Positions 861-1,640 are shown, counted from the first letter of the stretch. The stretch: DNA of 64,000 nucleotides from Escherichia coli (GCF_003334765.1 NZ_QOWT01000004.1); one strand, 5' to 3'. The notes: generated by a model from the sequence alone, not told the origin. Made by a program: numbers and translations.

Positions 861-1073
861 ATGTCTAATAAAATGACTGGTTTAGTAAAATGGTTTAACG
901 CAGATAAAGGTTTTGGCTTTATCACTCCTGATGATGGCAGCAAAGACGTTTTCGTCCATTTCACCGCCATCCAGAGCAATGAATTCCGCACGCTGAACGA
1001 AAATCAGAAAGTTGAATTTTCTATTGAGCAGGGGCAACGTGGCCCCGCGGCAGCGAACGTTGTTACGCTCTAA
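861..1073 (+). CDS. cspG: Cold-shock protein CspG (70 aa)
   Basis: [26 protein letters not shown]... with canonical cold-shock domain RNP1/RNP2 motifs. Confidence 0.95.
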
Positions 1074-1272
1074 GGTTGCCATTATTACTCAACATCTCCA
1101 TTTCCGCTGTCCATGTTGTCATGGTTCACAGTACCGCACATCGGCATTCGATGTGACGGAGCGAAACCCTTTGGGCGCTAAGTGTATTTTTTGTAAATCG
1201 ACGATGATCACCTTTGATAACGTCGCGCTGCAAATACGCACTGACCATGCGCCGCTGGATTTCACAAAATAA
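1012..1272 (+). CDS. ymcF: Small zinc-ribbon-like ORF (CPCC...CIFC), probably ymcF; true start uncertain (ORF-track ATG at 1012 overlaps cspG 3' end; alternative TTG at 1060)
   Basis: ORF contains two Cys pairs (C-P-C-C and C-I-F-C) spaced about 22 aa, typical of a zinc ribbon; lies between cspG and ymcE as in K-12. Confidence 0.45.
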
Positions 1273-1477
1273 TATCAGGCTCCCTCGTGGAGCCTTTTTT
1301 ATATCTGCCTTATTTTTCTTCAACGCTGTATGTATAGTAAGCGATAACCTGTTGATTATTGAATCTTTCGGGGAGATGGCTTATAACATTTCTTACCTGA
1401 CCAGGGTACCGGGAACCAACACCTTACTGGCGTGTTGCTGTCTTTTAAGACCAGAAGAGGTTAACAGTGAATATTGA
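1247..1477 (+). CDS. ymcE: Small membrane protein YmcE/Sfa (76 aa)
   Basis: In-frame Met inside the 87-aa ORF gives [25 protein letters not shown]..., matching recalled YmcE; hydrophobic segment. Confidence 0.6.
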   Translation: MRRWISQNNIRLPRGAFFISALFFFNAVCIVSDNLLIIESFGEMAYNISYLTRVPGTNTLLACCCLLRPEEVNSEY

Positions 1478-1640
1478 AGAGTTAAAAAAACAAGCCGAAA
1501 CGGAAATCGCCGACTTTATCGCGCAAAAAATCGCCGAGCTGAACAAGAATACAGGGAAAGAAGTCTCTGAAATTCGCTTCACCGCACGAGAAAAAATGAC
1601 CGGGCTTGAAAGTTATGATGTCAAAATCAAAATAATGTGA
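1467..1640 (+). CDS. gnsA: GnsA (57 aa, GTG start), putative regulator of unsaturated fatty acid synthesis
   Basis: Manual translation from GTG at 1467 gives MNIEELKKQAETEIADFIAQKIAELNKNTGKEVSEIRFTAREKMTGLESYDVKIKIM; below the ORF-track length cutoff. Confidence 0.8.
   Translation: MNIEELKKQAETEIADFIAQKIAELNKNTGKEVSEIRFTAREKMTGLESYDVKIKIM

Follow-up and report, generated by a model that had tools for sequence, protein, structure and literature searches.

The window analysed here is a stretch of 64,000 nucleotides of Escherichia coli DNA (GCF_003334765.1, NZ_QOWT01000004.1), and our gene table covers its positions 1 to 2800. Positions 126 to 2800 are the sequence of E. coli K-12 MG1655 apart from a single SNP at 317, and positions 6 to 125 are unlike K-12, in which IS1D adjoins that point. 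The stretch from 800 to 1700 was found in 5394 of 5426 complete E. coli genomes. On the plus strand, cspG (861 to 1073; 70 amino acids, stop codon TAA at 1071 to 1073) is followed by ymcF, by ymcE (1247 to 1477), an annotated ORF whose coding status is doubtful, and by gnsA (1467 to 1640), which is preceded by a Shine-Dalgarno sequence, AAGAGG, at 1455 to 1460. This group is flanked by cspH (363 to 575) and yccM (1689 to 2762), both on the minus strand. The first-pass annotation had described three small same-strand frames after cspG, among them a ymcE of 76 codons and a gnsA of 57 codons with a GTG start, overlapping by 11 nt (1467 to 1477). This layout was confirmed, and the cysteine-rich frame was found to overlap ymcE by 26 nt (1247 to 1272).

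The maximal open cysteine-rich frame spans 86 codons on the plus strand, from TTG at 1012 to TAA at 1270 to 1272. The two cysteine pairs reported for it are present, with the CPCC codons at 1108 to 1119 and the CIFC codons at 1183 to 1194. However, the ATG inside cspG from which it was thought to start does not exist in that frame; the first in-frame ATG is at 1204, codon 41 of YmcF, and the in-frame candidate starts within cspG are TTG 1012, TTG 1024, GTG 1039, and TTG 1060. The overlap with the cspG 3' end that had also been noted applies to the maximal ORF from 1012 but not to the gene itself, which is annotated from 1084. The frame is ymcF (b4723; WP_071524879.1), a real gene but not a new one, with an existing annotation and a Pfam family of its own. 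RefSeq and the K-12 annotation give a product of 62 amino acids with an ATT start (1084 to 1272, plus strand). Coordinates and product are the same in our window and the Pfam match is full length, so that no difference from the known gene was seen. Residues 1 to 62 of YmcF align with positions 1 to 62 of the 62-position model PF23641 ("YmcF-like"; score 166.3, i-E = 1.7e-49), and the RefSeq product name is "cold shock small protein YmcF."

The transcript that carries ymcF could be outlined from two features. The Rfam cspA thermoregulator (RF01766) matched the plus strand from 705 to 1127 with 159 bits, against a gathering score of 78 bits, over model positions 1 to 428 of 428; the match covers the cspG 5'UTR and coding sequence and extends into the start of ymcF. 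An intrinsic terminator with a 7-bp stem (AGGCTCC/GGAGCCT), a 5-nt loop, and a T-run lies on the plus strand at 1277 to 1300, inside the annotated ymcE. It begins five bases past the ymcF stop and is the only plus-strand intrinsic terminator in the region examined. A hairpin and T-run, with changed stem sequences, also follow the ymcF orthologues of Salmonella, Kosakonia, and Citrobacter, as well as those in the K-12 Qin prophage and in another prophage. The thermoregulator match, together with a terminator that comes only after ymcF, indicates that cspG and ymcF form a bicistronic cold-shock unit. Its mRNA would have a cspA-type thermosensing leader that begins near 705 and would end at 1277 to 1300. 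Zhang and colleagues, writing in Mol Cell in 2018, are said to have defined ymcF and its relative ynfQ from cold-shock ribosome profiling. In published RNA-seq tables, ymcF changes together with cspG (PMC13058169; PMC10920338), and ynfQ is listed as cold-shock induced (PMC11228462).

We compared the codon aligned with position 1084 in 80 loci from different species, 40 of them adjacent to a csp gene and 40 not. Behind a csp gene the codon was ATT in 36 loci, ATC in 3, and ATG in 1, with no other codon, whereas in the loci not behind csp it was ATG in 30, ATT in 6, ATC in none, and another codon in 4. In three of these last four the codon is ACG and an ATG lies three codons upstream; in the fourth the alignment is out of register and the next codon is ATG. 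Counted from the aligned codon, the ORF encodes 62 amino acids in almost all 80 loci. The E. coli genes with AUU starts include infC and pcnB, with which ymcF has the rare near-cognate start in common; in ymcF it is conserved among orthologues. In infC, a first cistron, AUU serves the autoregulation of IF3, whereas in ymcF ATT or ATC is tied to the place of a second cistron, 9 to 10 nt after a stop codon, and ATG is used when the gene stands alone.

The junction between the two cistrons is equally regular. In the window the stop codon of cspG is embedded in the Shine-Dalgarno sequence of ymcF (TAAGGT, 1071 to 1076, plus strand), with a 10-nt gap to the start codon. The csp stop lies within TAAGG or TGAGG in 38 of the 40 csp-adjacent loci, and the gap measures 10 nt in 31 loci and 9 nt in 7. 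The exception in start codon is Citrobacter sedlakii, where the csp stop has been lost through a 19-nt deletion that joins both ORFs into one of 130 codons. This is the sole csp-adjacent locus with ATG; it has lost the upstream termination and gained a canonical start. Because the ribosome binding site TAAGG contains the cspG stop and the start codon follows 10 nt further on, ribosomes that finish cspG are most likely passed directly to the ymcF ATT at 1084 by termination-reinitiation, and we infer that ymcF translation is coupled to cspG termination. The weak ATT would hold YmcF production in the cold to a low, constant share of that of CspG, whose output is then very high, and where upstream termination is absent ymcF would need an ATG. 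A hairpin sequestering the Shine-Dalgarno sequence at the cspG end was predicted for E. coli, but RNAalifold gave no conserved pairs over 22 loci, and this candidate was rejected.

Copies of ymcF that stand alone were found in unrelated neighbourhoods in Enterobacter, Lelliottia, Leclercia, and Silvania, with an ATG start. Their leader of about 190 nt is colinear with the cspG promoter and 5'UTR, and it has a 24-nt block with 92% identity in common with the cspG 5'UTR (733 to 756 of the window). In most of these loci the local alignment of the leader reached z = 6 to 10, with 0 of 200 shuffles attaining the score; two Leclercia loci were weaker, one being not significant (L049, z = 1.2) and the other marginal (L056, z = 3.4). 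The Rfam cspA thermoregulator gave no match on the stand-alone Enterobacter leader even at E ≤ 1. Since Rfam does not recognise this leader, the 24-nt block and the weaker colinear blocks are only suggestive of a relationship to the cspG leader. In Klebsiella and Raoultella, ymcF lies behind apparent degraded csp 3' ends and again starts with ATG. However, four stand-alone copies without an intact upstream gene keep ATT (L040, L063, L068, and L075). ATT can thus apparently work without an upstream cistron, and the association of start codon with position is strong but not absolute.

These four copies are also a point in favour of ordinary de novo binding of 30S subunits at TAAGG, in which ATT 1084 would be used independently of cspG translation and the weak codon would serve to limit expression or to confer sensitivity to IF3. 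The normal spacing between the ymcF Shine-Dalgarno sequence and start codon is compatible with such binding. IF3 discriminates against AUU starts, as for infC, so that a rise in IF3 in the cold should reduce AUU initiation, which does not sit well with induction of the protein by cold. In the cold, the ratio of IF3 to ribosomes increases about 3-fold (PMC6511841), and on that account an IF3-sensitive start could be regulatory. Independent initiation would leave two regularities to be accounted for, namely the very tight distance of 9 to 10 nt from a stop codon that lies inside the Shine-Dalgarno sequence in 38 of 40 loci, and the replacement of ATT by ATG when ymcF is the first cistron or the csp stop is deleted. 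We therefore consider de novo initiation an unlikely, though still serious, competitor of coupling.

A longer YmcF of 70 to 86 amino acids, starting at one of the TTG or GTG codons within cspG and overlapping its 3' end, in essence what the first-pass annotation had supposed, might be considered, since the E. coli frame is open from 1012 and AGGGG at 1030 to 1034 precedes GTG 1039. Some database entries from Citrobacter, Salmonella, and relatives of Kosakonia are 70 to 72 amino acids long, and many Citrobacter loci have an in-frame ATG nine codons upstream of the ymcF start; however, that ATG arises incidentally from the csp codons AAT-GTN. In many genera the frame is closed 3 to 9 codons before the start. 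Eleven (11) loci, belonging to several genera, have a stop 3 to 7 codons upstream and no ATG, GTG, or TTG between it and the ATT, so that a non-canonical codon must be the start there. In seven loci of the Kosakonia group, the csp stop itself is in frame three codons upstream. In the stand-alone copies the ATG coincides exactly with the codon aligned to 1084, giving 62 amino acids, and the Pfam model consists of the same 62 positions. The region from 1012 to 1083 is not conserved as coding in the ymcF frame. A second ATT occurs at 1081 in the window, but the corresponding codon is GTT in other Escherichia loci, and the conserved start is 1084. A longer product is improbable on these grounds, and the comparison places the ymcF start at ATT 1084, 10 nt past the cspG stop and not inside cspG. 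Both K-12 genes, ymcF and ynfQ, start with ATT. The first-pass annotation had held that neither the start nor translation could be decided from sequence; comparison among orthologues fixes the former and, as described below, reveals selection at the protein level.

Two further readings of the cspG end have very little to recommend them. A CspG-YmcF fusion through programmed +1 frameshifting or stop-codon read-through is hardly tenable, as the frame being open across the last 62 nt of cspG in E. coli and the real in-frame fusion ORF of C. sedlakii, a single case produced by a deletion, are set against a csp/ymcF frame relation that varies (offset +1 in 31 loci, in frame in 8 with C. sedlakii included) and so argues against a conserved fusion, a frame closed immediately upstream in many genera, and stand-alone copies without any csp. 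The other reading is that the ymcF frame is untranslated, either as the cspG 3'UTR or as a small RNA derived from its 3' end, with a fortuitous ORF. In Salmonella, the Rfam small RNA candidate STnc220 does map on the last ~40 nt of the ymcF orthologue and the terminator, but it spans the 3' end only and is compatible with a coding mRNA.

Selection on the frame weighs heavily against an untranslated region. Across 75 orthologous loci, the pN/pS of ymcF was 0.15 (pS 0.78, pN 0.12), compared with 1.6 and 2.3 in the other two frames. Within Escherichia only, it was 0.04 (other frames, 2.3 and 2.0), and the corresponding values were 0.06 for cspG (2.6 and 6.7) and 0.06 for gnsA (0.9 and 4.1). The low ratio was thus confined to the ymcF frame, with synonymous sites near saturation and the protein kept at 55 to 80% identity. 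Entropy at the three codon positions was 0.42, 0.24, and 1.22 over the 75 loci, the third position exceeding the first two 3- to 5-fold, and the cysteines are invariant and the length of the ORF is conserved. This analysis effectively refutes the untranslated reading, which we regard as extremely improbable, and the substitution pattern marks ymcF as a protein-coding gene under strong purifying selection. No primary experimental evidence for ymcF translation was found in the literature searched; the case for translation and for the ATT start is made by comparative evidence plus database annotation.

We collected 137 YmcF homologues, all from Enterobacteriaceae or their phages and most of them 62 amino acids long. 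A profile search of 1.84 billion representative proteins returned 42 relatives only, all small stand-alone proteins, and none among the proteins searched was a domain fusion or a distant relative hinting at function; two large proteins matched in this search were repeat artefacts. Among 37 YmcF sequences, C9, P10, C12, G14, Q16, R18, P29, G31, A32, K33, C37, and K38 are invariant, and at least 90% of them have C11 and C34. In these orthologues the block HFRCPxCHGSQYR, HFRCPxCxGSQYR as a family pattern, and an 11-residue block are nearly invariant, and the last ~20 residues are variable. Conservation of the four cysteines had been proposed as a check on the frame, and it was borne out for C9, C12, and C37 without exception and for C34 at the level given above. 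Distant members keep all four cysteines and have CPxC in place of CPCC, and because of this the predicted ligand set is C9 (1108 to 1110), C12 (1117 to 1119), C34 (1183 to 1185), and C37 (1192 to 1194), all on the plus strand.

YmcF is most likely a Cys4 (CPxC...CxxC) metal-binding miniprotein of the zinc-ribbon or rubredoxin-knuckle type, for which the zinc ribbon of TFIIE-alpha and the Zn modules of Leu- and Ile-tRNA synthetases are near systems. The metal would be Zn or Fe. Basic and aromatic residues on the surface are invariant, which suggests that YmcF has a specific macromolecular partner; given that R8, Q16, Y17, R18, K33, and K38 are invariant, its role is probably to bind a nucleic acid or another protein during the cold-shock response. 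Sequence comparison with solved structures gave nothing significant, and PHROGs and PADLOC searches with ymcF and ymcE gave no matches. Likeness to the Rieske box and to the UvrA CPxCHG was limited to the motif level. YmcF scored 17.4 bits (E = 0.003) against NCBIfam NF047912 (ECs_2282 putative zinc-binding CxxC family), under the curated cutoff of 37 bits. YnfU (b4776) is likewise a small putative zinc-binding protein with two cysteine pairs encoded near csp genes in Qin. However, YnfU is unrelated to YmcF, as no BLASTP alignment exists between them, and it was ruled out as a paralogue.

The true paralogue is YnfQ (b4724), which is 66% identical to YmcF over 62 amino acids and is likewise separated by 10 nt from the csp gene before it. 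In Qin of K-12 the order is cspI, the 10-nt gap, ynfQ with its ATT start, ynfR, ynfN, and gnsB. As with ymcF, a terminator comes directly after the stop codon and a gnsA/gnsB homologue lies downstream. Unlike ymcF, ynfQ sits in a prophage between lysis and packaging genes, and the ORFs between ynfQ and gnsB (ynfR and ynfN) are unrelated to ymcE. YnfQ has been modelled with a rubredoxin-like metal site (PMC13348028). The name "YnfQ" in VanOrsdel 2018 denotes another ORF, of 37 amino acids. The same cassette lies between lysis and terminase genes in the lambdoid phages and prophages Tritos, mEp460, 2H10, HannyBb, L083, and L084, with the order csp, ymcF-like gene, terminator, variable ORF, and gnsB. 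The chromosomal cspG-ymcF locus is a paralogue of this phage moron cassette.

Taken as a whole, we hold with high confidence that the cysteine-rich frame is the known ymcF, that it encodes a Cys4 miniprotein as the second cistron of the cspG mRNA, and that its translation starts at ATT 1084, probably coupled to cspG termination.

The ORF between ymcF and gnsA is less secure. Of the three stacked genes that had been described, ymcF and gnsA were borne out, and the middle one, ymcE, came out without evidence of conserved coding. GnsA matched phrog_2301 over positions 1 to 57 of 57 (E = 1.1e-33), and its prophage homologue carries PF08178. YmcE does match the NCBIfam equivalog NF007379 (187 bits; cutoff, 163). 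In six other Escherichia species-level loci, however, the ymcE ATG is lost in four and the frame is broken in four, by stops, by a 6-nt deletion plus a stop, or by a 1-nt deletion, whereas ymcF and gnsA are intact in all six. Outside Escherichia, in Citrobacter and in phages, ymcE is absent or unrelated ORFs lie upstream of gnsA/gnsB. The non-overlapping part of ymcE gave a pN/pS of 0.71 in the annotated frame and 0.51 and 1.15 in the other two. Its divergence is uniformly low, at about 0.05, compared with a pS of about 0.2 in the neighbouring genes; this uniformity, with no preference for a frame, points to constraint at the nucleotide rather than the codon level.

The ymcE ORF contains the cspG-ymcF terminator, and by eye we noted a candidate sigma-70 promoter of gnsA on the plus strand at 1359 to 1387, with TTGAAT (1359 to 1364) and TATAAC (1382 to 1387) separated by 17 nt. 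A strict promoter scan, in which T was required at position 6 of the -10 hexamer, did not flag it. The blocks of this candidate promoter are conserved in the regions upstream of gnsA/gnsB in Escherichia, Citrobacter, and phages, and the conserved blocks are separated by indels whose lengths are not divisible by three. For the gnsA leader, in the ymcE region, a conserved RNA structure was also considered, but it was rejected with only three invariant pairs and no covariation. By sequence, ymcE does not behave as a conserved coding gene or as a partner antitoxin of GnsA, and it may instead consist of the cspG-ymcF terminator and the promoter and leader of gnsA. This lack of coding hallmarks conflicts with the description of ymcE as the GnsA antitoxin (Wei et al. 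2015, as cited in PMC8484670).

The identification of ymcF itself adds nothing new, as both the E. coli K-12 and the RefSeq annotation include the gene and its Pfam family exists. Only two points go beyond the existing annotation, namely the switch between ATT and ATG according to cistron position and the doubt over ymcE. The comparison adds context to ymcF in the form of the relation of start codon to cistron position, the stop codon within the Shine-Dalgarno sequence, the csp-type leader on stand-alone copies, and the phage cassette. We tentatively propose two readings, held at somewhat less than even odds: that start codon choice in the YmcF family serves as a conserved means of regulation, and that ymcE may not be protein-coding. 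The first would mean that AUU or AUC is used only 9 to 10 nt behind a csp stop lying in the gene's own Shine-Dalgarno sequence and that AUG is used once termination is lost, either with the whole csp ORF or, as in C. sedlakii, with the csp stop alone.

If this is true, YmcF would be a naturally occurring example, repeated across the phylogeny, of obligatory termination-reinitiation at a near-cognate codon, and its output could also hang on initiation fidelity, through IF3, in the cold. For the family, the picture is of a small protein that keeps close company with cold-inducible Csp paralogues and that lambdoid phages also carry; its start codon switch provides a clean natural setting in which to study how translation is coupled at near-cognate codons in cold shock.

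The annotated ymcE ORF (window positions 1247 to 1477) does not have the hallmarks of conserved protein-coding genes. The start codon is gone in four of the six other Escherichia loci, the frame is disrupted in four of the six, and among the compared loci the ORF is absent outside Escherichia. The pN/pS of ymcE was 0.71, with no frame favoured and with low divergence throughout. The missing coding hallmarks conflict with the reported role of ymcE as the GnsA antitoxin (Wei et al. 2015, as cited in PMC8484670).

The ymcE ORF contains the intrinsic terminator of cspG-ymcF (1277 to 1300), which reads as RLPRGAFF in the ymcE frame. 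A similar arrangement is found in the K-12 Qin prophage, where the 21-amino-acid small ORF ynfR (MKAPSGAFLLG...) runs across the terminator hairpin 3' of the ymcF paralogue ynfQ. Strong cold-shock induction of YnfR-SPA has been published. Also inside ymcE is a candidate gnsA promoter (1359 to 1387; TTGAAT and TATAAC separated by 17 nt), which is kept upstream of gnsA or gnsB in Escherichia, Citrobacter, and lambdoid phages. In the same alignments, indels of lengths other than multiples of three occur downstream of this candidate promoter. A search for conserved RNA structure in the gnsA leader found none.

The window is identical to K-12 MG1655 from 126 to 2800 apart from one SNP at position 317. 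Its left end (1 to 125) is unlike K-12 MG1655, in which IS1D adjoins the point of departure. Residues 9 to 17 of YmcF form the string CPCCHGSQY (1108 to 1134), which resembles both the CPCHGSQY of Rieske [2Fe-2S] box II in cytochrome b6f subunits and the CPxCHG of the UvrA zinc knuckles, although neither likeness is significant (E-values of 0.014 to 0.2). Additional conserved residues of YmcF are C11, H13, and H6.

In Citrobacter sedlakii NBRC 105722 (L019), a 19-nt deletion has removed the csp stop codon and joined csp and ymcF in one ORF of 130 codons (2297 to 2689), in which the ymcF start codon is ATG, not ATT. It may represent either a natural fusion or a csp gene in decay. Stand-alone, ATG-type ymcF copies occur in Enterobacter, Lelliottia, Silvania, and Leclercia (L073 2310 to 2503; similarly L064, L070, L074, L081, L054, L056, and L049). 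They are preceded by a leader of about 190 nt that is colinear with the cspG promoter and 5' untranslated region and includes a 24-nt block with 92% identity to the cspG 5' untranslated region. These copies have the appearance of loci from which the csp ORF was excised. The leader similarity was weak in the two Leclercia loci tested (z = 1.2 for L049 and 3.4 for L056), and Rfam did not recognize the leader.

In Salmonella enterica subsp. diarizonae (L014), the Rfam small RNA candidate STnc220 matched at 2647 to 2726 (102 bits), overlying the final ~40 nt of the ymcF orthologue and its terminator. STnc220 probably represents a fragment from the 3' end of the csp-ymcF mRNA.

In lambdoid phages and prophages, a cassette consisting of csp, a ymcF-like gene with an ATT start, a terminator, a variable small ORF, and gnsB, in that order, sits between the lysis genes and terminase (L083 and L084, 2778 to 3838; L085, 2278 to 3337; K-12 Qin, L086, 3110 to 4168). 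This lambdoid moron cassette and the chromosomal cspG-ymcF-gnsA locus are paralogous.
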